Source: a virus (taxonomy: Duplodnaviria; Caudoviricetes). Taken from it: a stretch of DNA of 64,000 bases. Position numbers and translations under genes: made by a program. Below the pieces are notes generated by a model, which made no database searches, had not been told where the DNA came from, and saw only the letters and a list, made by a program, of their open reading frames with translations. Position 1 is the stretch's first letter; the number at the start of each line of letters is the position of its first letter. Of the stretch, positions 3,056 through 24,166 are shown one piece after another. The stretch spans positions 64,001-128,000 of the IMG/VR virus record IMGVR_UViG_3300033067_002132, one strand, 5' to 3'.

Positions 3056-3241
3056 ATGAAAACATTTCTTTTAACTTATACAGAAGACGTTACTCATATC
3101 GGGGATGATAGCGAAAGAACAGAAATCAATACGGATTTCTTGCATACCACAAAAGAGCGGGCTATTATTCTAAGAGACGAAAAACTCGCCAAACCGAATA
3201 TTTATTCTAACGTTAAACTTTACGAACTGACCGAATTATGA
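3056..3241 (+). CDS. Hypothetical protein (start corrected from GTG 3023, which lies inside the RNA element)
   Basis: ORF track, in-frame ATG at 3056. Confidence 0.65.
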   Translation: MKTFLLTYTEDVTHIGDDSERTEINTDFLHTTKERAIILRDEKLAKPNIYSNVKLYELTEL

Positions 3242-4464: not shown

Positions 4465-4646
4465 ATATATGTCACTACCATTATGGACACTTCCCAAAGA
4501 AATTCGTAATTCTAAAGAAAAACATCAGCTTGTAATTCGGCTAAAAGATCATGAAGAATCTTTACAACGAGCAAAAAACATTGTAAAGTATCATGAGAAA
4601 AGAATTATTGAATTAAATGCGGAAATTAAAAAATTAGATCTATAAT

Positions 4647-4913
4647 ATGACAAAAGTCAATGTTATTTTATGTAATAAATGCGGCGATAAGATTTATAGT
4701 CGGGCGCGGCATGATTTTCGTTGGTGCTCTTGTAAATCTGTTGCGGTAGATGGGGGATTTGATTATCTTAAAATTTGTGGCGATTTAGAGAATGTTACTA
4801 AACTTACTGTAGAGATTCCCCAAACGAAAAAAGAATTATTTAACGATTGGAATTATAGATTTGATAAATACGGAGTAATTAAAGATATTGACGAAAAAGA
4901 AAATCTGGCGTAG
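4647..4913 (+). CDS. Conserved phage Zn-binding protein
   Basis: CxxCGD-I-S-x3-HDF-x2-CxC-x4-VDGG motif. Confidence 0.7.
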   Translation: MTKVNVILCNKCGDKIYSRARHDFRWCSCKSVAVDGGFDYLKICGDLENVTKLTVEIPQTKKELFNDWNYRFDKYGVIKDIDEKENLA

Positions 4914-5004: not shown

Positions 5005-5081
5005 GGACCTTTAGCTCAATTGGTTAGAGCGAAGCACTCATAATGCTTGGGTTATAGGTTCAAGTCCTATAAGGTCCACCA
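5005..5081 (+). tRNA. trnI: tRNA with CAT anticodon, most likely Ile2 (lysidine type)
   Basis: Perfect cloverleaf, GGACCTT/AAGGTCC acceptor typical of bacterial Ile2, loop CT-CAT-AA, ACCA end. Confidence 0.9.
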
Positions 5082-6030: not shown

Positions 6031-6303
6031 ATGAAAATCATCGGTGTCGTTATTAAAGATACTTGGGGAAAGACTTGGAAGCTACCCGCACCAAATCGTC
6101 ATGCCGATTTAATTCAATTAATGGTGAAAACTTATATTTCTACTACAGGCAAAGACGAAACGCCCAAAATACTGTTCCAAGGATTCTATACCGACACCGA
6201 TGAAATTCTTTCGAGAACTGATGCTTATCAATTAGTTAATACAACTGGACAAAAAATTATTAATCGCCCGAGTCAGCAATTATATAGCGAAGATTTGTGG
6301 TAA
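6031..6303 (+). CDS. Conserved phage hypothetical protein
   Basis: RH...QGF...R.DA...LYSEDLW pattern recalled from phage proteins. Confidence 0.65.
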   Translation: MKIIGVVIKDTWGKTWKLPAPNRHADLIQLMVKTYISTTGKDETPKILFQGFYTDTDEILSRTDAYQLVNTTGQKIINRPSQQLYSEDLW

Positions 6304-6312
6304 GTTTTAATA

Positions 6313-6436
6313 GTTAATGTAGAAAATTGGCAAATCAGGGGGTTTGTACCGAAAACAGAAATCACAGGGAAGACCGCCGATTAATGATATAGCTGTTAGA
6401 CATTAATTTATGTAGGTTCGACTCCTACCATTAACT
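6313..6436 (+). ncRNA. Class II (Leu/Ser-like) tRNA scaffold with a 25-nt anticodon loop
   Basis: GTTAATG/CATTAAC acceptor, D-loop TTGGCAAA, long variable stem ATTAATG/CATTAAT, T-arm GTAGG-TTCGACT-CCTAC. Confidence 0.75.
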
Positions 6437-6478
6437 ATTTCTTGACTTATTTTTTTTCACTGTTAGGATTAATCCAAT

Positions 6479-6989
6479 ATGAATCCAACTAGACGAATTA
6501 CAAGACAAGAGGAACGGATAATCGATGGAAAAACCTTTATTTTAACTAAAAATGAGGAAATGAATTATAGTGGAGAATGGGAAGAAAGCGGATTCGATTT
6601 AATTATTGGAGGAAAAATTGTACAAACTTTTATTTGTTATCCATTCGACGAGTGGATTCTTGCCGAATTAAAAAGATATGTTAAGTGAAAAACAAGATTT
6701 TCTACTTTATTGGAAGCGTCGCCGTCGCGAACTATTAAACGCTCTTAATCATTATATTCAAGATAAAGGATTATCTTTTGGTATAATGGCAGGGACTTTA
6801 TTTAAAGACGATAAACATAAAATCGTCGATTTAATAGAAGATAAAACTATCGAATTGTATTTGACATTTCTAAAAAACATTGATAAACGTATTGGTGAAT
6901 TAGGACATCCAACATTAGAACAATCTGAATTTTTTAGAAACTTTAATATCAATTACTATAACTTTTTGAAAAATACTTTTGAATTTTAA
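6479..6989 (+). other. Two hypothetical CDSs (6479-6688, 6678-6989)
   Basis: ORF track; promoter TTGACT 6442 / TAGGAT 6464. Confidence 0.65.
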
Positions 6990-10809: not shown

Positions 10810-11049
10810 ATGCTAAGATTAAACACAGAACAAGAAATCGAAGAATTAAATAGGACCTTGCGGCGCAATCCGAATAAGTTAGTTTATTATAATGCGCGCA
10901 TGAATCCTTATAATTGCGGTTGGGTAATTGCGAGAATTAAGGATATCCCTGTGAACAGTATCCCTAAACCTAAGAATTATTTTAAAATTGTTTCAGAAAG
11001 AGTCTTTTTTAGTCTAAAAAGACCTAATGCACCTATTAATGATATCTAG
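10810..11049 (+). CDS. Family paralog 8 (start corrected from 10798)
   Basis: RLNTEQE..NPNKLVY..YNCGW..FFSLKRP. Confidence 0.85.
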   Translation: MLRLNTEQEIEELNRTLRRNPNKLVYYNARMNPYNCGWVIARIKDIPVNSIPKPKNYFKIVSERVFFSLKRPNAPINDI

Positions 11050-12068: not shown

Positions 12069-12523
12069 AAAATGAAAACTTACCGCGCCGCAAATGGGGG
12101 AATTAACGAGTATAAACAAGGAGAAAAGGATGTTACTCTGTGTGGTCTTTTTGACGTTGCTGATCTTCGTTATATTGTGGAAAAACTAGAAAAGAAAGAA
12201 GAAATTGAATTGCCGCGCCCAATTAATCGAGTAGAATTGGCCGAAAAAGGAATTAAAGATGAGTTTATGATGGGCCTATAAACAAAAAAAAATATATAGA
12301 GTACGTAACGATACCCTAAAAATCTTTTTTAAAATGTGTATCAGTAACTTTTCTTTCTTTGTTATTTCTTTGGGACTCAAGATCATTGGATTCACGCTTG
12401 GGGCCGTTTAACACGTAGCTTCGTACCCGGAATCATAATCTGCCGCTGTCAAAACTTCAAATAAATAAAAATAACCGCTGTTAGAAACTATTACAGTTAG
12501 TATAGAAATAAGAGAATAATTAT

Positions 12524-13122: not shown

Positions 13123-13216
13123 GGTCCCATAGTTTAATGGTAAAACGCACGGCTTATACCCGTGATAAGCTCTAGATTTGGGCACGTTCTAGGTTCGAAT
13201 CCTAGTGGGACTACCA
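13123..13216 (+). tRNA. trnI: tRNA-Ile(TAT) with a long variable arm (94 nt)
   Basis: GGTCCCA/TGGGACT acceptor, CACGG-CT-TAT-AC-CCGTG, ~24-nt variable region, CTAGG-TTCGAAT-CCTAG, ACCA end. Confidence 0.9.
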
Positions 13217-13230
13217 ATTTTCTAAATAAT

Positions 13231-14326
13231 ATGAATACCATTACCACAAAGGCCAATCCTGTTATTAAAACCCCTAGAATTGGAGATCTTTATTTAGATA
13301 GTAATGAAGAATTATATATTTTAGCTAGAGTAGATCTAAACGTTTATTCCGCGATTTCTTTGAAGGATGGGGAACCTTGGACTTCGGACCCAAGACCAAC
13401 AGTTCAAGAAGCAATTTATGGCTTGATTTTTTGTAAAAGGAACGCTAAGATCACTATTGAATGAACGCCACCGAAGCAAATAAGAATAGAAAGATCGGCG
13501 ATAAAATTACCTTTAATTTGGATCATAGCCCGCATGCAATGGGCGAGGGAATTATCGTAAGATTCGACGATGATTACTGTATCGTAAAAATTACTAAAGA
13601 TTGTCAAGAATATGGTCTAAAATTTGAATGCGGGCGCGATATCGTTGTCTTTTTCGACGAAATAACGAGTAAATAATTATGAAATACATTCTCACCCAAT
13701 TTTTTCCTGAATTATCTTTTATTGGTAATGCGAGGGACGCACAATTAATTTTGAATTCTGAAATTCTTAAATAATGAATAATTTCGACCAACTATTTTTA
13801 TTGTTTTTCATCGTAATGTTTGTCTTGATTATTCTAAAAGTTACTCAGAATTAAATTATGCACGCGCACGATCTAAATAAGCTAATAAATAAGGTAATTG
13901 CCGCGAAAAGTGGGGATTCTATTTATATCGGCGAGTGTATGTCAAGTGAAGAATTGGTGGATTTTTATCTTTATCTTTTGCGGCGCCTAATTTTTCCTGT
14001 TGTTAATTCATATAAAGAGGGCGAAAATCTTTATTATATTTTAACAGTGAAGAAAAAGTAGTGGACTATTGACAAACAGAAAAAGAGATTTAGACTGGAA
14101 AAACATGAAACGCGCATTTATCCATCTACCTAACGGTCAAACGTTTGAACTAAACAGAACGAGTAATGAAGAAATAACAGGCGTTGAAGTTGTCCAATTA
14201 CGAAGCTCTATGAAGGAAGCAGTTTCGTTTAGTTCCGAAGCTTTTACTGGGCCTAATTTCGATAAGAAAGTTATTTTGGTTCTGTGGGGCGAGGTACTCA
14301 AAAATTCTTTTATCACGATCGAGTAG
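13231..14326 (+). other. Hypothetical CDSs (13231-13464, 13461-13676, 13858-14061, 14105-14326)
   Basis: ORF track, with starts moved past the tRNA and promoter. Confidence 0.65.
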
Positions 14327-14397
14327 AAACCTATTGACGAAAAGTAAAAAAGGATTTAGCCTTTTCAAGTCGAACGAAACATTAACTGAAAAATTCA

Positions 14398-14943
14398 ATG
14401 AATACCGATACCATTGCCCCTACGCCGACCGCCGAAATCGTCTCGCCCGAGACTCAGGAAGCCGTTAACGCTCTGCTTGCCAAGGTTGACGCTCCTCCCG
14501 TGCAAGACGCGGTTGAAGTCGCGCCGCCTGTTTCTGAAACGGTTTCCGCGCCCATTGCGGAAATCATCTCTGCCCCCGCCGAATCGGTTTCAGCGGAAGT
14601 TCCCGCTCCCGCGCCGATTGCTGAAACTACCCCCACCCCCGCTCAGGTTGCGGCGACCCCTCCCGCCGCAACCCCTGCCCCTGCCGCCCCTGTGATTGAG
14701 GCACGCAAGGTTTCCGTCGAAATTCTTTTCCCTAACAAGGAAGAGTTTACCAAGCGGGATATTGAAGTAATTAACGAGACGAATTACGTCGGCGCAAGTG
14801 AGCTGATTAATATGCTCGTTAGTACGGGTCAGGTTGAAAAGGTCCGCAAGCAGCCTCAGGCTGGACGTGGCAAGCCCACCGATATTTTCCGGTTGACGCC
14901 CAAGGCGCCGATTGCGAAAAACAAGAAGAATAACAAGAAGTAA
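14398..14943 (+). CDS. Pro/Ala-rich protein with a C-terminal winged-HTH-like domain and basic tail
   Basis: Low-complexity PA/PE N-terminus; ...LVSTGQVEKV..GRGKPTDIFRL; own promoter and terminator. Confidence 0.6.
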   Translation: MNTDTIAPTPTAEIVSPETQEAVNALLAKVDAPPVQDAVEVAPPVSETVSAPIAEIISAPAESVSAEVPAPAPIAETTPTPAQVAATPPAATPAPAAPVIEARKVSVEILFPNKEEFTKRDIEVINETNYVGASELINMLVSTGQVEKVRKQPQAGRGKPTDIFRLTPKAPIAKNKKNNKK

Positions 14944-14960
14944 CTTCGTCGGTCCTTCAC

Positions 14961-14990
14961 AGGGGGAGGGGGTTTTACCCCCTCCCTTTT
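14961..14990 (+). terminator. Rho-independent terminator
   Basis: GGGAGGGGG-ttta-CCCCCTCCC followed by TTTT. Confidence 0.75.
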
Positions 14991-15230
14991 CTTCTCTCTC
15001 TATGAATATAAATAGGGAAATCATACTAGCTTCGCCCATACTCAAAAAGCAATGGGAACAATCGATGCTATCTATGGAAGAATTTATTCTAAGAGCGGTG
15101 GATAATTTTGTGGTAAATTCGAAAGGGGGATCGAATGGTATTTCTTCTAATTTTGGCTCTAACGGTAGTGCTGGGTGTTCGTCTCTAAACTCTTGACATC
15201 GAATTCGGTTTTGAATAATCTATTGCCCGC

Positions 15231-15893
15231 ATGAGAGTTCTATTCACCCGCATTTCATCTAACAAAAAAACGGGTCCTATTCCCGTCTCTCTTACAACCG
15301 CAGACTCATGCCCCGACGTTTGTCCTTTGAAGAAAAAAGGTTGCTATGCATTTTTAGGGTATATAAGAATTCATTGGGATCGTGCCAATAAAACAGGTAT
15401 GAAATGGGGCGAATTTTGCGTAGAAATAGCTTTATTGCCTTCGGGACAATTGTGGCGCCACGATCAGGCGGGAGACCTGCCAGGAAAGAATAACAAAATT
15501 GACGCGCCCAAACTCGCTTTATTGGTTGAGGCTAATCTTGGCAAAAAAGGATTTACTTATACGCATAAGCCTTTAACAAAAGAAAATAGCGCCGCGATTA
15601 AGTATGCGAATTCTAATGGTTTCACGATCAATCTATCGGCCAATAATCTAAGGCACGCAGATGAATTAGCTAAAAAGAACGTTGGACCGGTTGTGACGTT
15701 GCTACCAAAGGATCAAATGAATAATTGCTTGACCCCCGAGGGGCGCAAAGTTATTGTCTGTCCCGCAGTCACGCGAGTAAATACAAATTGCATGACTTGC
15801 AAGCTGTGCGCAAATGCGAAAAGGTCAGTTATCATAGGTTTTCCTGCGCATGGCGTGGCCAAAAACATTGTGGACAAGATCGCGAAAGAATAA
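15231..15893 (+). CDS. Cys-rich conserved phage protein (probably metal-binding)
   Basis: SNKKTGPIPVS..SCPDVCP..GCYA; WRHDQAGDL; CPA..CxxCxLC. Confidence 0.7.
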   Translation: MRVLFTRISSNKKTGPIPVSLTTADSCPDVCPLKKKGCYAFLGYIRIHWDRANKTGMKWGEFCVEIALLPSGQLWRHDQAGDLPGKNNKIDAPKLALLVEANLGKKGFTYTHKPLTKENSAAIKYANSNGFTINLSANNLRHADELAKKNVGPVVTLLPKDQMNNCLTPEGRKVIVCPAVTRVNTNCMTCKLCANAKRSVIIGFPAHGVAKNIVDKIAKE

Positions 15894-15897
15894 GTAT

Positions 15898-16170
15898 ATG
15901 GAAAAGAAATCGACATCCCTAATTTCGCTTCGTTATCGTGGTTTTAAGGTTAAGTATCTATGTCCCGGAAACGTGCGGGGATCGCGAGTTAAGATTATCG
16001 ATTTGCGACATGACGAATCGGTTACGCTTTGTTTAGAGGATGAATATCGGGATTCTAGCGAGCAAGCTTACAACTGGTTAGAAGAACACGGCATTAAGAT
16101 TGTCGCTACTATGCTGGAACGAAATGAGGAAGTTTTCTTGACTGAGGATTTCAAAACCCATATTGTCTAG
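15898..16170 (+). CDS. Hypothetical protein (start corrected)
   Basis: KYLCPGNVRGSRVK motif; ATG at 15898. Confidence 0.65.
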   Translation: MEKKSTSLISLRYRGFKVKYLCPGNVRGSRVKIIDLRHDESVTLCLEDEYRDSSEQAYNWLEEHGIKIVATMLERNEEVFLTEDFKTHIV

Positions 16171-16171
16171 G

Positions 16172-16894
16172 TTAAAGGATTTTTGATCCTTTTTTCATGT
16201 TTTCTTCTTTCCATAAAGGTTGCAAGTTAGTATAATGAAAACATTTATGTAAATTTTCCTCTTTTGTAAGATCAAAAGAAACACAAGGAAGAATATGATC
16301 TATTTCCCATTTTCCATAATTATCCCAAGACATATTTTCTTTAAATTTCATTTCTAGATAAGACTTAAGATAATCAATAGAACAACCAAGATAAGCAATA
16401 GTTCTCTCTCTGTTGCAATTAAAGATATTTCTAATATATTTATTTAATCTGCGGCGTAAATTAGATTTAATTCTATATTGAATATTATTCTTTCTTCTGT
16501 TTCTATACATTTCTCTCACTTTTTCTTTATTTAATAATTTCCATCGTCTTGAAGCTTCCCTTTTTATCTTCATTTTTTCTGGATTAGCATGTCTAATTAT
16601 TTTATTTTTTAGAACTTCGCATTTCTTACAATAAGGACTAAAAATTCCCTTTTTCGATTTATTAAAAAAAGATAAATCAAATAAAGTCCCACAAAATTTA
16701 CAAATTTTTTCTGTTCGTTCTTTTTTCTTTTTAAATCTTTCTCTTTCTATATTATTCCTTCTTAAAATAGAATAAATAGTAGTTTTATTTACATTAAATA
16801 GTTTTTCTAATTCTTTTCCTTTTATATTGCTTATATAAGCTTCTATTATTTGTTTTTCTTTTTCTTCAGAAGTTTTATTATGCGTTTTTCTCAT
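16172..16894 (-). CDS. HNH homing endonuclease with N-terminal HTH and Zn finger
   Basis: NMSWDNYGKWEIDHILP..FDL..CFHYTNLQPLWKEENMKK; CxxC..CxxC; GTGTAA promoter at 16903-16908 fixes the ATG at 16894. Confidence 0.85.
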   Translation of the reverse strand: MRKTHNKTSEEKEKQIIEAYISNIKGKELEKLFNVNKTTIYSILRRNNIERERFKKKKERTEKICKFCGTLFDLSFFNKSKKGIFSPYCKKCEVLKNKIIRHANPEKMKIKREASRRWKLLNKEKVREMYRNRRKNNIQYRIKSNLRRRLNKYIRNIFNCNRERTIAYLGCSIDYLKSYLEMKFKENMSWDNYGKWEIDHILPCVSFDLTKEENLHKCFHYTNLQPLWKEENMKKGSKIL

Positions 16895-16970
16895 ATAAGA
16901 AATTACACAGAAAATTAGGGTTTCCATAATAATAGTTGACACAAATGGTTTTTTGTGAGAAACTCAAAGT

Positions 16971-17390
16971 GTGATTAAACATTTACTTTCTTTTTTATTG
17001 TGTTGTAATGTTTTTGCAGGTCAATATAATGAAAATGAAATAGTAGCAACCGTTTTAATTTTAGAAGCAGGCGGTGAAAAAGACGATAGATGTATGTCCG
17101 CCATTTACGAAGTAATTTGTAATAGGCAAATAAAAAGACATTTATCAAAAATAGAGGTTTGTTTACAAAAATATCAATTTTCTGAATTTAATGATGGAAA
17201 AATCAAAGAAAAAATAGCGAAAGCAAAAAAGCACCCAAAGTACAAGAAAGCCCTAAGTTTAATTAGTATGAAAACTGATTATACTCAGGGCGCGACGCAT
17301 TTCTACTCTACTAATATTGCCAAACCATACTGGGCAAAAAAGATGAAAGAAACGCTTGCTTTAGGAGCGTTTAAGTTCTATAAGGAATAA
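16971..17390 (+). CDS. SleB/CwlJ-like cell wall hydrolase (Hydrolase_2)
   Basis: Signal peptide; EAGGE..A.YEVICNR..VC.Q..QFS..GATHFY..PYWA. Confidence 0.85.
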   Translation: MIKHLLSFLLCCNVFAGQYNENEIVATVLILEAGGEKDDRCMSAIYEVICNRQIKRHLSKIEVCLQKYQFSEFNDGKIKEKIAKAKKHPKYKKALSLISMKTDYTQGATHFYSTNIAKPYWAKKMKETLALGAFKFYKE

Positions 17391-17816
17391 AATTTTATGC
17401 AAAACTTTCTAAATATCGCGAAAATAAATCGTAATAATTTTATTAAACGTTGCAGTAAATGCGACGAGGCAAAACTTGATTTATTCGAATATAAAGATAG
17501 TGTATTCGATGAAAAATTCACGCTAATTTGCTCGTGCTGTCATTACGTAATATTTAATCTCTCTGTTTTGGACTAAGAAAAACAGTTATTGACTTTCAAT
17601 CGGCGATTTAGTATTTTCTAACCATGAAACTTGACCAAGCTCTCGCCTATCTCAAAAGTTCCGGTTTCAAAATCACTCAGAAAGGCACAAAAACTTTTTT
17701 GGTTCAAAAGGGGAATGATCACCCTTGGCAAGCGGGAGAAGAGAAATTAATTAGAGTCGCGGAAAAGTACAAAAACATTCAAGAATAATTGACGCAAAAC
17801 GTTCACGTTTAAGTCT

Positions 17817-18023
17817 ATGCAAATCACCCGCAGATCCCCCCTTACTGGCGAGAAGAATACTCGCGAAATTCCCGTGACTTTTCAAAACATAAAAGAATGG
17901 CAAAATGGTAAGTCAATTCAAGACGCTATGCCAAATCTTTCGGCGGAAGATCGAGAGTTTATTATGACTGGTTATACTCCCGAAGATTGGGCGAAAATGT
18001 TTCCGTCCGAACCTGAGAACTAA
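17817..18023 (+). CDS. Conserved phage hypothetical protein
   Basis: ITRRSPLTG..IQDAMPNLSAEDREFIMTG motif. Confidence 0.75.
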   Translation: MQITRRSPLTGEKNTREIPVTFQNIKEWQNGKSIQDAMPNLSAEDREFIMTGYTPEDWAKMFPSEPEN

Positions 18024-18071
18024 GTAAAAATTCTTATTGACGTTTAGCGCGGAATCGTTAGATTCAAGCCT

Positions 18072-19077
18072 ATGAAATTAACTAAGTACCCTTTCAACGG
18101 AAGATGGCGCGTGGAAATGGTAGGAACGATTGACGAAATCGATTCTTATCTAATTCGCTTATACAATATTGGTGCGACAAATGCGACTTTTGAGCGCGAT
18201 CAATTGGAGACGTTTTTTCATATTGACTTGGAAAAGAAACGGTGGGAAAAGGCTTTGTCCGGCTGGTTGCAAATCCAAAATGCCGAAAACGAAACGCGCA
18301 AATTGTGCCGAATTGCACAGAAACAGCGCCGGGATAAAATTCCCATTTATTCGCAAGTAATGCAACGTTTGGCGCAAGAAGAAATCGCGGCAATTCCTAT
18401 TCCTGAAATCAAATCTGCTGTCCTGTCGCTTAAGAATCACGACTATAAGGGAATCTCTTATATCGTGGGGACCGATCATGAGGCGGAAATGATGAGTAAG
18501 GAAACGGAAATCCCTGCCAAAATTAACGTAAAGAAAATGACGGCGCGAAATTTTTCTTGCAACGCAACGGCAAGCGAGTAAGGATGAAGCCATGAACGGA
18601 CAAGAATTTTCCCAAAAGCAAACGGCAATCTTTAATAAGTATGAAATCACAGATCCGAGAATGGTCTCGATTATTTCATGCCAAGCTTGGGAGGATAATC
18701 ATTCGGACGGTTATGAAGCCGTCCTAGTAAAAACTGAAAAATATTGTCAGTTTACTGAAACGATCTTGAGTGCGTTTTTCGCTAGTATTAAATTGCGCTA
18801 AACAAGAATATAAGCCATGCCTCATTTGCCCATTTCTTTAGCTCTTTTGACAGATTTAGAAAGAGAAGAAAGCATAAGACGGGAAAGAACGGAAAAATAT
18901 ATCTTTGAAATAAAAGAAGCAAAGAAAGAATTCGAAAAAATGAATGAAATACATCACGGTTTTATTGGTTATTGGCCCGAAATGAACGAGCAAAAAAAGG
19001 CCAAACTATCCAGCCCTAAATGGGCCGATTTTCGGAAAAAGGGAAAAATCAAAGGGTGGCAGCGGAATAAACGTTGA
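18072..19077 (+). other. Hypothetical CDSs (18072-18581, 18592-18801, 18817-19077)
   Basis: ORF track; leaderless promoter at 18037. Confidence 0.65.
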
Positions 19078-19140
19078 CGCGGAAATTAATTTAGGATAGG
19101 CTTTCGGTGTTGTGAGATTGGAGAGAGTTGAAACAACAAC

Positions 19141-19284
19141 GGCGGGGTAGTTTAATTGGTAAAATATTTTCCTTTTTTTGGTAGGCAATAGGGATCAATA
19201 TTGCCAATATCCGAAACGAAATCAAGACTGATCCTCTTGAATAAAATAAGGAAAAAGTTGCGGGTTCAAATCCCGCTCTCGTCT
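19141..19284 (+). ncRNA. tRNA scaffold with the anticodon loop replaced by a ~70-nt kissing-loop domain
   Basis: GGCGGGG/TCTCGTC acceptor, D-arm GTTT-AATTGGTA-AAAT, stem TTTTCCTT/AAGGAAAA, T-arm GCGGG-TTCAAAT-CCCGC. Promoter TTGACG 19074 / TAGGCT 19097. Confidence 0.8.
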
Positions 19285-19365
19285 GCTCCAATAATTAGCT
19301 AAAGTTAAATAAAGCTAAAAAAACAGAAAAACGAGGCGTCAAATTATACGCCTACACAACACAAA

Positions 19366-20806
19366 ATGGAATATAAATATCTTCCCCATTACGACGATAA
19401 AACGTCAATAAGATTCGGCGAACTACCTTTGCCAAAGGAGATTTTTGCGCGGCAGGAATTAATGCGCGAAATTGGATTTACTGCGGGCGAGGAAGTTTGG
19501 AAGAAAGGGTATGGATACGTACCCATTTATTATTTCGTTCGCGAATTAACGAAAGACGAGCAAAATCTTTTGTGCCTTTGCCCCTTGACGGATGAGACGG
19601 CCGATGGTAAATTTCGTTCATGACGCCAATTACGCTGACCCCCGAGCAATTGCTTAACCTGCTTAAAGATTGCAAACGCGAAAGCGTTTTGTGCTGTAAT
19701 AGTTCGCTGCCAATTAAGCTTGTTTTGATCACTGAAATGCGTGAGGGACCGACAGGCTATTTGCCGCGCAGTATTTTCGGTGTTTATTACAAAAATCAAG
19801 TCGGGCGATTTTTTAATTCTTTGGAGGAAGCAATTGAATGCTATTGCCGAATTGAGAAAGCGAACGAAAGATTTCCTTGACGCTCAAAGACATTAGTTAA
19901 TACTCTCTCGCATGAACTCCACGATACTCAAAGTCTCTTATACTGGAACGCAGATTATCATCGCGAAAACGCTGGCCGCGATGCGAATTAAGAATCCCGC
20001 GCCGATTAAGTTCTATCCTACCAGAGCGGCGAGAGGAACTCATAACGTTGAGCGTATGTTCACGGTTTACCTTGAAGTTGAGACCACCACGGGGCGAATT
20101 CTGAGCGGCGGCGTGCAAGTTAACTAAATCTTTTATGGTAACAAAAACCTTTGCTTTCCTTCCTCTTAATAACAAGCAAGCAACGCCCGAATTTCGCTCT
20201 TTTATTTTGTCATTTATTGAAGGAATTAGAGTAGCGGAATCGGCACGCGGGCACGTTGTGCGAATTGAACCTACACTAAGCGGGGATTGTTCCGGTTGGT
20301 TGCTTGTATGCGAAGCGGAAATGGGAAAAGTTATTGGACAGTATTTGTCAAATCTCAATATTGAGCTTCGCGAGATTTGAAAACGCCCACTTGACAAAAA
20401 GCAAAGTCTCAGCTAACCTTTAGAAGTCGGTAGGAAAACAACGAAACGAAACAACACTATGAAGAACGAAACCTTTGTGAACAGTCTCTTGAATGCGTCG
20501 GTCCCTACGGGCAAGATCGATTTGGCCGCGGTCCAGGCGGCGATTCAGGAAAAGAACGATGAGAACAACCGCGCCAAGATCGAACGCGCCCGCAATCTTT
20601 TCGAACGGTTGAATGGGGAAGTCACGTCCGCCGTGGAAAGCCTGCGAATCATTCGTCAGCAGGAAAAGGAAGCGAAGCAAACCGTGATTCGGCATGCTGC
20701 CGCTTTCGCCACGTTCAAGGAAACGGGCGATCTCAATAAGGTCGCGGCGATCCTGTACCCCGGCGAGAAGATCGCGCAGGAAAATTTCGTCCGCCGATAT
20801 TCCTGA
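19366..20806 (+). other. Hypothetical CDSs (19366-19623, 19620-19880, 19912-20127, 20135-20380, 20459-20806)
   Basis: ORF track, + strand, several with their own promoters. Confidence 0.65.
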
Positions 20807-21097
20807 TCGCATAACAAACTCGACTAGGCGAGTATAAATAGATAATTAAGCCTAGTGCGTTTGCGGGTAAAACCCCGCAAGGTTTATGATATTAATTATA
20901 TATTATCTCCGAATTGCAAGTGCCTTGCGCCGCGCAATTTATCCCTGAAACAACAGGGGTTAAAAGCTTCAAGCTAAAGGAAAAAAAAGCCTTCGTGCTG
21001 TCGGTGTTTGTTTCCTTCGTTGAGTGGGGCGGGGAGAGAAATCTTCCCGCCTCATTTGTTTATTGACATGCGCGGTGCATTTAGCTAATTTGATCGC

Positions 21098-21607
21098 ATG
21101 CAAGACCTGACCGCTTCTCTCGCCGATAGTCTTTCACGCAAACACTATCGCAAGACGCCTGCCATGTTTTCCGTCATGACTCTGCGCGATAAACTTCCTT
21201 TCGATTCTAAGCCTCTCGCCGATGATCCTAATAAAATTGCCGATTATTGTCGCCAAGCAATTATTGGCAAAAAAGGGTACAATCCCGACGTGGAAAGTTG
21301 TTGGGTTATCGTAATGAATACGCGCCGACGAATTGAAGGGCATTTTCTAGTAGCAACAGGAACTCTCGACACTTTGTTAGTTCATGCTCGCGAAGTGTTT
21401 CGCGGCGCTATTCTTGCCAATGCTGCGGCGATTGTTCTTATGCATAATCACCCAAGCGGCGACCCGACTCCGAGCGAAGCTGATATCCGCGTGACCCGAG
21501 AAATGATTAGAGCGGGCCAACTACTAAAAATCGAAGTATTAGATCACGTAATTTTAGGAGAACCTAAGCATTGCTCGCTTAAGGAATTAGGGTATTTTAC
21601 TTATTAG
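21098..21607 (+). CDS. radC: RadC-like JAB domain protein
   Basis: E..W..NTRRR..GTLD..VHAREVFR.AI..NAAAIVLMHNHPSGDPTPSEAD..LDHVI. Confidence 0.92.
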   Translation: MQDLTASLADSLSRKHYRKTPAMFSVMTLRDKLPFDSKPLADDPNKIADYCRQAIIGKKGYNPDVESCWVIVMNTRRRIEGHFLVATGTLDTLLVHAREVFRGAILANAAAIVLMHNHPSGDPTPSEADIRVTREMIRAGQLLKIEVLDHVILGEPKHCSLKELGYFTY

Positions 21608-21656
21608 GCAAAATTTGCCTATTGACTTTTCATTTTCGTTCTGATAGCTTTAAATT

Positions 21657-22061
21657 ATGCAAATCGACAAGCAACTACTCATCGCCCGCAACACGCTTCT
21701 CAACCTGAACGAAGAGTTGGCTGGATATCGCATTTACTTCATGGGTGATAAATTCCGCGAGGATACCACGGTACAAGTTCATGAAATTCTTTCGCGAATT
21801 CTGATCCTTAAAGACCAAGTGGAAACCGCATTGGAAAGTGTCACAATGCCTTTCAAGGTTCAAGTGGCGGCGGGCGAATTGAATCCTGGCGATAAAGCTT
21901 TTTTGATCGAAACGAATCCCGAAATGGGAATGGAAGAAACCCTCGACTGGACCTGTACATATATCGGCCAAGAAAAGGTTCTTTTCGAATACGTAAAACA
22001 AGGAAAACAAACGAGAACCACAATGCGGAATAAAACTGAGATTGTTTGGAAACTGCGCTAA
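21657..22061 (+). CDS. Hypothetical protein (leaderless)
   Basis: TTGACT 21622 / TAGCTT 21645, ATG 6 nt later. Confidence 0.7.
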   Translation: MQIDKQLLIARNTLLNLNEELAGYRIYFMGDKFREDTTVQVHEILSRILILKDQVETALESVTMPFKVQVAAGELNPGDKAFLIETNPEMGMEETLDWTCTYIGQEKVLFEYVKQGKQTRTTMRNKTEIVWKLR

Positions 22062-22295
22062 ATTAAATTCGATTGAAAAATCCCCGATTCTAGAATTTAT
22101 TGCTAAATAAAAAGCCTACTCAAATTCCCTGGTTCTAGAAAGTCGCGCTAAATAAAAGTACGTAGCGCGGACCCTGGCCGATTGGGCGCATAGCGGGCCG
22201 AACTAGCCGGGGCAATTAGAGTAGAAACCCTTAAGAATTAAAACTATGGTAAAAACCCTTAAGAACAGGCGTTATGGTAAAAACAACTAAGATCA
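22055..22295. repeat. Intergenic imperfect direct repeats (45-bp and 28-bp periods)
   Basis: GCTAAAT at 22057/22102/22147; TTCTAGAA at 22088/22133; AAACCCTTAAGAA at 22225/22253; TATGGTAAAAAC at 22245/22273. Confidence 0.75.
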
Positions 22296-22367
22296 GCACC
22301 TAGAAGAAAAGAGCTAAGGAAAAGAACTATTGCAACGCCAATGGCTTTCTGCCAAGCTTTCGCTCCT

Positions 22368-22916
22368 ATGAATCCTATTGAAACCCTAAAGACATTCGCG
22401 CACAATCCTCCCGGATTTGCCAGTTTTACCTATACGGCAAAAGGTAGCGGGGAAACTGCGCGGCATACCGTCATCCTCGGATTTGACTACAACAAGAGTG
22501 TGGAAAAGAGCCTAACCGATTTGGCGTGCATTAATCGGGCGGATTTCCCCGCAATTTCGGATGAATTGTGGCCCGTTGCCGTTTCGGAAATTCGGGCCAG
22601 TCTCGAAAAGACGCTGGCCGCGCACGTAAGGGGCGAGCAAAACGCGGACTACACAAAAAAGGATCAGTATTTGTCCCTGGGGTTTTCTGGTATGCACGTT
22701 AACCTTAATGACGGAAGCCTACAAGTTTTCGGGCTGGCGCACGCTAAGACTGTCCTGGTGCCCGGCGAATATAAGCCCGTCAAATCCCGTCCCCTCACGC
22801 TGGCCAAGGAAGCCATCCGCAAGACGCTGGCCGTGGGAAAATTCCGCGAGTTTGCCTTTGACTCCGGGACGATACACACTGTCCGCATGAACGGTTCGAC
22901 CCTCGAAATCGAGTAG
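22368..22916 (+). CDS. Hypothetical protein (start corrected)
   Basis: ORF track; promoter TTGCAA 22330 / CAAGCT; GC-rich codons. Confidence 0.7.
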   Translation: MNPIETLKTFAHNPPGFASFTYTAKGSGETARHTVILGFDYNKSVEKSLTDLACINRADFPAISDELWPVAVSEIRASLEKTLAAHVRGEQNADYTKKDQYLSLGFSGMHVNLNDGSLQVFGLAHAKTVLVPGEYKPVKSRPLTLAKEAIRKTLAVGKFREFAFDSGTIHTVRMNGSTLEIE

Positions 22917-23347
22917 GGGGAAAGACTATGCTCTTTCTCCTAATCGTTATCATTATCATCCTTTGTGCCGCTTACCATGAATAGAATAAAAAACGCTATC
23001 CTAATTCTTTTTTGGGTAGGCGTAGGATTCGGCGTTATTTTCGTAGTTTTTACCTTTATTTCGAACCTTTATTCTTCCTAGTTATGAAGCTAACCTTTTG
23101 CCTTGTATGGGGTCGCAATCGCCAGTTTCGCCTAAGCGAGCAAGGCTTAGCTGTGCTGCGCGTCCTTCGTCCCTTTGGCCCCTTGCCGTTCCTGCGGTGG
23201 GATTCCGTTGTGCGATTCGATCCTGGCCTTGCGTTGCTTGCGTTGCTCTTTTCGCTCCTTTTCGCATTTACCTATTGACGGCAAAAACCGTGTCTGATAC
23301 CGTTTCCTTGTCGGTCGCAGAAACAACCAAAACAAATTAGATAGAAC

Positions 23348-24166
23348 ATGAAAGCCAAACTTTACTTGCACGCTGGCGGAGCCCTTACAACGTGGGACGC
23401 GCTTAATGCTCTGCCCACCCCGCCCGCGATTGGCAAACACGTCCCTGTTGGACACGCGGCCTTTTTGGACCGCATCGAAAGACTGTTGCCCGTGGACGGA
23501 TTCAGTGTGATCGAACGCCAGATTGCCGTCGCAAAGGACGGGGCGCGGATGTTTGCGCTCCTTCAACTAGCCCACCCTAGCCTAACGTGTGGCGATGGGT
23601 CAGGGTATATCATGGGTGTGCGAAACTCTCACGACAAGGCGTTTGCCGCTTCTGTTACCGTGGGCCGTTGCCCCTTCGTTTGCGATAATCTCGCGTTTTC
23701 GTCCGGGGCGGATGGTGTTGTCGTTAATCGGCGCCATATTGGGGGCGTGCATCGTGACTTGGGCGGAATGGTTATGGAGTTAATCGCGGGGCTCGCCGAT
23801 CGATTCCGGATTACGGATGCTCGGGACGCTTGTTATCGGGGCGCTACGCTTGACAATCGGGACGCTGATCACTTCGTTTTAGAGTTGTACCGCAACGGGG
23901 CGATTGGTTGGGGCGAAGCACGCCGTGTTCTCGCGGAGTACCACGGGACGGCCGTTAACCCCGACAAGGTTGAATTCCGTCATGCGGAATTCGAACCCCG
24001 GACCGCCTATTCTCTTTTCAACGCTTTTACGCAAGAATTGAAGGGAATTGACGACAAGGGTGTGGCCCACCCTAACGTTTGGGAACTCCCGAAGGCGACC
24101 GCAATCGCGTGCGAAGTGTTCGACCGCCTTTGCACCTTCAACCCCGCCGGGGCGATTGTCGTCTAG
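23348..24166 (+). CDS. DUF932-family protein
   Basis: H.PV.H; GVRNSHDKAF..G..PFVCDNLAF; RRH; TAYSLFNAFT. Confidence 0.8.
   Translation: MKAKLYLHAGGALTTWDALNALPTPPAIGKHVPVGHAAFLDRIERLLPVDGFSVIERQIAVAKDGARMFALLQLAHPSLTCGDGSGYIMGVRNSHDKAFAASVTVGRCPFVCDNLAFSSGADGVVVNRRHIGGVHRDLGGMVMELIAGLADRFRITDARDACYRGATLDNRDADHFVLELYRNGAIGWGEARRVLAEYHGTAVNPDKVEFRHAEFEPRTAYSLFNAFTQELKGIDDKGVAHPNVWELPKATAIACEVFDRLCTFNPAGAIVV

Follow-up and report, generated by a model that had tools for sequence, protein, structure and literature searches.

Class II tRNAs (bacterial and phage tRNA-Leu, tRNA-Ser, and tRNA-Tyr) combine a 7-bp acceptor stem, a 5-bp T stem with the T loop GGUUCGANUCC, and a GG in the D loop with a single base separating the D region from the stem that follows it and a long extra arm ahead of the T arm; the discriminator base is A73 in Leu and Tyr, and G73 in Ser. 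In the tRNA-like domain of tmRNA and in the YrlA Y RNA module, the acceptor/T-arm stack and the elbow are kept without the D stem, and a long helix takes the place of the anticodon arm. Short "enigmatic" introns have been described in tRNA genes of Lak megaphages; these inserts, conserved across genomes, interrupt tRNAs classified by tRNAscan-SE under eukaryote settings (Devoto et al. 2019, PMC6784885).

The element analyzed here, 6313-6436, lies on the plus strand of a 64,000-nt window (the whole stretch of DNA that was analyzed, bases 64001-128000 of a 193,745-bp IMG/VR phage record; the genome has 29% G+C). It is intergenic, folds into four helices, matches the tRNA model, and has neither an encoded CCA nor a 7-nt anticodon loop. 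All the class II features listed above, apart from the discriminator base, are found in it; unlike class II tRNAs, it has a loop of 16-25 nt instead of 7, a stem of 7-8 layers with a G.G mismatch at the anticodon position, a two-pair D stem, a 14-nt extra-arm loop, a paired U at the discriminator position, and no CCA, which is encoded in the real tRNAs of the phage. With the tRNA-like modules of tmRNA and YrlA it shares the retained stack and elbow, the lost D stem, and the replaced anticodon arm; however, it lacks G3.U70, CCA, and the tag ORF of tmRNA, and, unlike YrlA, it is not circularly permuted, has no Rfam Y RNA match, and comes from a phage in which no TROVE protein was found. Like the inserts of the Lak tRNA genes (PMC6784885), that of the 6313 element is short, is not of group I, lies at the anticodon loop, and has no mechanism of removal that is known, while the degenerate D stem, the lack of CCA, the extended terminal helix, and the absence of relatives set it apart from them. 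The 6313 element is a real, odd, orphan variant among the atypical or insert-bearing tRNA-like genes of phages, a kind already known. That it is a genuine RNA gene (with its extension, 6309-6439), derived from a tRNA and no longer decoding, is the reading we prefer, at roughly even chances.

Fold of the element and its match to the tRNA model

The Rfam tRNA model (RF00005) scores 6313-6436 at 29.4 bits, a margin of 0.4 bits over the gathering score of 29; the E-value is 0.048 for the window searched against all 4227 families, and approximately 1e-5, by division, for the tRNA family alone. The gathering score is reached, but with the anticodon arm replaced by an insertion: the alignment places the acceptor, the D region, and the T arm, with a perfect alignment of the T loop and the acceptor, and skips 17 anticodon-arm positions, with a 70-nt insertion instead. 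All elbow nucleotides are present (U8, A14, G18, G19, the T-loop UUCGA(CU), and G53-C61). ARAGORN with default settings does not call the element; at a lowered threshold it yields a tRNA-Asn with a 49-nt "intron", an unconvincing reading in which the stems are unpaired.

Both the minimum free energy structure and the partition function give four helices, namely, the acceptor, the stem at the anticodon position, the extra arm, and the T arm. Ensemble probability reaches 0.72 or more for 32 of the 34 modelled pairs, the exceptions being two D-stem pairs at 0.03; the fold z-score is only -1.22, which is not significant. The 5' strand of the terminal helix (6309-6319, plus strand) consists of AAUA (6309-6312) and the acceptor strand GUUAAUG (6313-6319), and pairs with the 3' strand CAUUAAC plus UAUU (6429-6439), after which the next bases are UCUUGA, with no discriminator-CCA. 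Pair probabilities are 0.93-0.99 for the acceptor helix 6313-6319/6429-6435 and 0.72-0.99 for the 4-bp extension 6309-6312/6436-6439. The D region (6320-6337), as placed by the Rfam alignment with non-standard pairs marked, contains U8 and A9, the remains of a D stem, and a D loop in which G18 and G19 are at 6329-6330; only G6322-C6336 and A6323-U6335 can pair (probability 0.03), followed by two A.A mismatches.

The arm at the anticodon position (6338-6378, from the minimum free energy structure and the ensemble) cannot be aligned to the tRNA model. Its stem, 6338-6345/6371-6378, has seven pairs around a G.G mismatch (probability 0.92-0.97) and closes an enlarged, A-rich loop, 6346-6370, which carries CCGAAAAC. 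The 25-nt loop described here in an earlier note is confirmed, and it may be shortened to 16 nt by two C-G pairs of 6349/6350 with 6368/6367 (probability 0.92). The extra, variable-position arm (6379-6408) is formed by AUUAAUG/CAUUAAU, 6380-6386/6401-6407, with an additional G6379.U6408 and a 14-nt loop (probability approximately 0.8), and is followed by the T arm GUAGG-UUCGACU-CCUAC (6412-6428), with a canonical T loop, maximal Rfam posterior probability, and pair probability approximately 0.9. With the acceptor, the T arm, the elbow nucleotides, and an extra arm of 7-8 bp all found, the description of the element as a tRNA scaffold with a long variable arm holds as well.

The extra-arm stem AUUAAUG/CAUUAAU is a near repeat of the acceptor stem GUUAAUG/CAUUAAC, and TTAATG/CATTAA occurs four times in the 124 nt against 0.24 expected. 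Alternative pairing among these repeated strands was considered and has ensemble probability 0.00. A candidate loop-loop pairing of AACAG (6354-6358) with CUGUU (6393-6397) is not significant (p approximately 0.12).

Decoding capacity and the insert in the anticodon loop

The element probably does not act as an ordinary decoding tRNA, since it has no 7-nt anticodon loop, a two-pair D stem, an 11-bp terminal helix, and no CCA. Where a decoding tRNA has a 7-nt loop with U33 and a purine at position 37 on a 5-bp stem, the element has a 16-25 nt loop on a seven-pair stem with a G.G mismatch; its D stem can form two pairs, not the 3-4 of a decoding tRNA. The four additional terminal pairs leave the position-73 base, a U, paired with A6312, and thus there is no free discriminator. 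As a class II tRNA it has the long arm of 7-8 bp, but with a 14-nt loop and U at position 73. CCA directly follows 22 of the 27 Rfam tRNA hits in the phage, usually as CCAATTT, while the five hits lacking it are the 6313 element (followed by ATTTCT), the RNA at 19141 considered below, and three other atypical elements; the Pfam six-frame search of the phage found no gene for a CCA-adding enzyme.

Two examples of CCA-encoding tRNA genes are found at 5005-5081 and 13123-13216 of the window, the CCA usually being followed by ATTT. A CCA-ending tRNA-like element is also seen at 2771-2907; Rfam does not report it at the gathering threshold, and the motif discussed below is absent from it. Long, class II-like extra arms occur in tRNA-Gln(UUG), tRNA-Asn(GUU), and two tRNA-Ile(UAU) genes (G000:C1:3050-3140, 10954-11047, and 17155-17247, and 13123-13216 of the window); in both tRNA-Ile(UAU) genes the extra-arm loop is UAGAUUU, containing GAU.

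The insert in the loop has 18-24 nt, and no group I intron was found in it, only the tRNA family of Rfam being matched up to E = 10; in both the 6313 and 19141 RNAs no Rfam ribozyme family was matched either. Inspection of the fold reveals no bulge-helix-bulge, the candidate splice sites lying inside a continuous helix with a single-base bulge, and none of the paired 3-nt bulges 4 bp apart that mark archaeal and eukaryal introns. No tmRNA was called by ARAGORN in the window, and the 3:70 pair of the element is U-A, with no CCA; Y RNA families are absent from the window at the Rfam gathering threshold, and the six-frame search of the phage gave no match to the TROVE/Ro60 domain (PF05731).

These results bear on the possibility that the element is a decoding tRNA with an insert of 18-24 nt beside the anticodon, removed by host enzymes or by unknown enzymes of the phage. 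The insert does lie exactly at the anticodon loop, and, in the canonical register (A26 = 6337), removal of 6349-6372 yields UU-UGU-AA, the loop of the phage tRNA-Thr(UGU); since a 24-nt deletion at 37/38 restores a canonical loop, such a tRNA is conceivable. One register over, the spliced loop would be UU-GUA-AG (Tyr); with several registers and splice points available, some acceptable loop is unsurprising. U73 agrees with the other Thr tRNAs of the phage, and its Gln, Asn, and Ile tRNAs also bear long extra arms; on the other hand, the degenerate D stem, the G.G mismatch in the would-be anticodon stem, the discriminator buried in an 11-bp helix, and the lack of the CCA found on every canonical tRNA of the phage argue against charging and decoding. 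Canonical, CCA-bearing tRNA-Thr(UGU) and tRNA-Tyr(GUA) are already supplied by the phage, so neither "spliced" identity is needed.

Precedent for such inserts comes from the Lak megaphage genes (PMC6784885). The 19141 RNA is read by ARAGORN as tRNA-Lys(UUU) with a 70-nt intron, its homologue reads CUU in one register, also Lys, and a canonical tRNA-Lys(UUU) is absent from the phage. As to removal, the insert is far below group I intron size (about 200 nt or more) with no ribozyme family match, and genes for RtcB, Rnl1-, and Rnl2-type ligases were not found in the phage (for Rnl1, the control was matched in no genome). An insert-bearing decoding tRNA is unlikely in our assessment.

Gene setting, homologue searches, and the preferred reading

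The large terminase of the phage has hundreds of relatives, at no more than 63% identity, and since several of these are named by Tara Oceans sources, the phage is of marine type; a search for close relatives of the phage found none. The 27 Rfam tRNA hits are spread unevenly over the genome, the majority being clustered at 3-25 kb, with five at 62-83 kb. The genome is tightly packed, and the element occupies 131 nt of a 175-nt intergenic gap; no ORF of at least 50 aa overlaps it. It begins 6 nt past the stop codon of the ORF 6031-6303, directly upstream, which belongs to the Pfam family T4_Y16D (PF26092). Most of the T4_Y16D relatives that were looked up adjoin frd/td in T4-like contigs, unlike the context of this ORF. 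The downstream ORF, 6479-6688, has no relatives among 5.8 billion proteins, and therefore the region evolves fast.

A consensus scan predicts a promoter-like site, TTGACT-16-TAGGAT with a TG extension, at 6442-6469 on the plus strand, just 3' of the element and ahead of the ORF at 6479; its 9/12 matches are not above the shuffle expectation. The same scan predicts no such site over approximately 700 nt upstream. The predicted site suggests that the 6313 RNA may end a transcription unit. This arrangement, together with the start 6 nt past a stop codon, would also fit a role in cis at the 3' end of the operon that precedes it ("tRNA punctuation"), where cutting by RNase P or RNase Z would define the mRNA 3' end or make it stable, with the released RNA having no role; the L255 copy of the sister RNA (see below) likewise overlaps the ORF upstream at its stop codon. 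We regard this explanation as very unlikely: a plain tRNA or a hairpin would suffice for it, leaving the two elaborate long arms unexplained, and a terminal helix of 11 bp is generally a poor RNase P substrate.

No homologue of the element was found in cultured phages, near or distant, nor in the flanks of 80 relatives of the terminase (TerL) and of 30 relatives of its 380-aa neighbour. Its exact T-arm/acceptor pattern is absent from IMG/VR, and its loop pattern from the JGI metagenomes; the Rfam tRNA search of the whole records of 22 relatives gave no insert-bearing tRNA hits. A single-sequence model of the element (R2) run against the phage's own genome and the records of 37 relatives returned only noise (at most 15.5 bits). 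None of the loci of T4_Y16D homologues, whether in T4-like contigs by frd/td or beside unannotated ORFs in the short contig L263, holds the 6313 RNA. The element thus appears, from these searches, to be a single-copy orphan.

An orphan in a fast-evolving region, next to an ORF with no relatives, might be a functionless tRNA pseudogene in decay, once a class II-like gene, which has acquired insertions in the anticodon loop and from which the CCA and the D stem have disappeared. The degenerate D stem, the absent CCA, the marginal Rfam score, and the non-significant z-score are in line with such decay. Yet decay should strike all stems, and here the acceptor (7/7 pairs, extended to 11), the T stem (5/5), the extra arm (7/7), and the seven pairs at the anticodon position are intact; moreover, 131 non-coding nucleotides have been kept in a compact phage genome. 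A pseudogene is rather unlikely in our assessment.

The preferred reading is that of a non-decoding RNA on a tRNA scaffold. The element would retain the parts of the L-shape and those recognized by tRNA-processing enzymes, that is, the acceptor/T-arm stack and the elbow between the D-loop GG and the T loop, and would have lost all that decoding and charging require. The anticodon arm would have been turned into a long irregular rod with an A-rich loop of 16-25 nt, with a second long arm at the variable position. The RNA may be transcribed together with the upstream genes and cut out or kept stable via its tRNA shape, and it might act through its two long arms, either by giving proteins a scaffold to bind or by decoying a host enzyme directed at tRNAs. 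Counting against this reading are the lack of a homologue and of covariation for the element, the z-score of -1.22, the 0.4-bit Rfam margin, and the ARAGORN miss.

The sister RNA at 19141, the motif in both RNAs, and their meaning

The sister RNA, 19141-19284 on the plus strand, has a well-formed tRNA body (47.2 bits with the Rfam tRNA model), in which a three-way junction takes the place of the anticodon loop; it consists of helices P1 (19167-19174/19248-19255), P2 (19176-19181/19211-19216), and P3 (19222-19227/19235-19240), with a lineage-specific hairpin at 19184-19190/19199-19205. ARAGORN reads it as tRNA-Lys(UUU) with a 70-nt intron. The ORF just downstream has a relative with 75% identity on L255, a Logan contig of 1167 nt (source run SRR24111745), and the gap upstream of that relative contains a homologue of the RNA, L255:381-509, to which the Rfam tRNA model, under permissive filters, gives 40.7 bits and which is the sole homologue found. 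In L255 the RNA and the ORF upstream of it overlap at the stop codon of the latter, hence the two are probably co-transcribed.

All 36 pairs are standard in both RNAs; six of them differ at both positions (four among the six of hairpin P3, one in P1, and one in the T stem), and six more at one position only, while sliding the pairing partners lowers pairing to 51-66%. The elbow pair 19:56, as read from the alignment, covaries from G-C in 19141 to A-U in L255, which has one acceptor pair more; the 3' trailer UGCUCYAAUAAU is conserved. With all 36 pairs kept, six of them by compensatory double changes, the 19141-type RNA is a conserved structure under selection, including the non-tRNA domain formed by the P1-P2-P3 junction. 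Comparison of the two sequences thus indicates that, close to this phage lineage, selection maintains a tRNA body with a structured replacement of the anticodon loop. L255 has neither the long first hairpin nor the kissing loops of 19141, and therefore these are not core features; the 6-bp kissing loops were set aside although p is approximately 0.007.

Pattern searches of IMG/VR gave no further members of the family, and the RNA is absent at more distant homologues of the downstream ORF. The candidate L247:11545-11707 was rejected (19.8 bits, many broken pairs).

In one register 19141 and L255 read Lys anticodons (UUU and CUU). The phage has no canonical tRNA-Lys(UUU), although AAA makes up 74 per 1000 codons, and 19141 is its only UUU-like gene; a canonical tRNA-Lys(CUU) is present at G000:C1:23066-23142. 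Since both homologues read NUU (Lys) and a canonical tRNA-Lys(UUU) is missing, the intron reading is stronger for 19141 than for 6313, and it does not carry over to the latter.

The 6313 and 19141 RNAs come from the same phage and strand; both are intergenic, have a tRNA body with no encoded CCA and U or C at the discriminator position, and carry an A-rich CCGAAA string in the domain at the anticodon position. From this string, CCGAAA(A)C(A)GAAATCA, at the anticodon position of both RNAs the earlier note had inferred a shared function or a mobile mini-insert. Both copies are exactly where it had placed them: CCGAAAACAGAAATCA at 6349-6364 (plus strand, exact pattern match), in the enlarged loop, and CCGAAACGAAATCA at 19211-19224. 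The expectation of 0.01 matches given by the pattern tool is unusable, the pattern being designed from both copies and hence post hoc. Instead, the best local alignment of the 25-nt loop of 6313 with the 79-nt insert of 19141 was compared with those of shuffled or random sequences, and was equalled by 23/5000 mononucleotide shuffles, 29/4995 random 79-mers of the genome, and 19/4000 dinucleotide shuffles. Whichever null is used, p is approximately 0.005 for a single comparison, which is suggestive if the comparison was the only one planned, and weak if many RNA candidates were compared.

Further similarity is seen in the L255 homologue, where the core of the motif, CCGAGACGAAAATA, keeps 11 of 14 positions (CCGARACGAAA), and the heptamer of 6313 recurs a second time, independently, as the P3 hairpin loop, CCGAAAA; CCGAAA itself is scarce, with 49 occurrences on the plus strand of the 194-kb genome. 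The structural contexts, however, differ. In the 19141 family, P2 has CCGARA as its 3' strand, which pairs with UUUYGG beside the U run at the anticodon position; CGAAA of the motif forms the junction, and the final UCA, the start of the covarying P3 stem, is not conserved, being AUA in L255. The 6313 element has no UUUYGG partner: there the motif is unpaired in a terminal loop, apart from its CC pairing with GG 6367-6368, and one long arm plus an extra arm takes the place of P1-P2-P3. The inserts are 24 and 70 nt long, with no common ends.

Model searches agree with the structural comparison. With R1, a covariance model built on the 19141 family, 6313 reaches 11.1 bits (filters off), against 150 and 170 bits for the true members, and R2 scores 19141 at 10.8 bits (E-values from R1 and R2, both built here, are rough). 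Only the acceptor and the T arm are used in these cross-alignments, and the other RNA's helix at the anticodon position is put on the wrong arm; the R1 alignment of 6313 places P1 on the extra arm. A third near-copy of the motif, GCGAAAGAACAGAAATCA at 3111-3128, lies within a coding frame, therefore A-rich strings like the motif arise by chance in this genome. The motif pattern has at least 115 matches in IMG/VR, and among the matches listed none has a credible tRNA context, ARAGORN at a very low threshold giving only poor cloverleaves; the search for the pattern in tRNA-like loci, proposed in the earlier note, thus brought no further copies among these matches.

A common functional module or mobile mini-insert is accordingly not established, and we give it only a small chance. 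That the motif occurs in both RNAs is probably due to chance, or at most reflects a loose convergence, and neither structure nor searches with the models built here support the proposed link between 6313 and 19141. Broader still, and quite improbable, would be an undescribed class of phage RNAs uniting 6313 and the 19141 family, in which a tRNA body would serve as a scaffold for processing and stability, and a CCGAAA-type structured domain replacing the anticodon loop would be read by one common partner, e.g., a tRNA-directed host defence nuclease that the RNA titrates.

Other structured RNAs are encoded in the same genome. Four of them (G000:C1:4190-4320, 4500-4650, 6825-6905, and 12430-12515) have a closing helix AGAUCCGU/ACGGAUCU, or variants of it, followed by ACAGCAA; the inner cargo differs in each, one being a CCA-less tRNA-like body. 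A Pistol ribozyme at 20818-20887 of the window (Rfam, 68.6 bits; gathering 34.5) lies 1.5 kb downstream of 19141. Both 19141 and the ribozyme fall within 14000-24000 of the window, where most 2-kb windows have 41-51% G+C (31% at 16-18 kb) against 29% in the genome, and where DUF7227, RadC-like, DUF932, and cell-wall hydrolase genes are found.

Generally, phage tRNA genes act as both weapons and targets in the conflict between phage and host, in which anticodon nucleases and other tRNA-cleaving defences take part. Several RNAs of this phage have retained the shape of a tRNA but appear unable to decode. At present, 6313 adds one more well-defined candidate RNA, linked to 19141 by a weak motif. 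If it is another working member of this set, tRNA scaffolds would be a general route by which phages obtain stable small RNAs with new functions.
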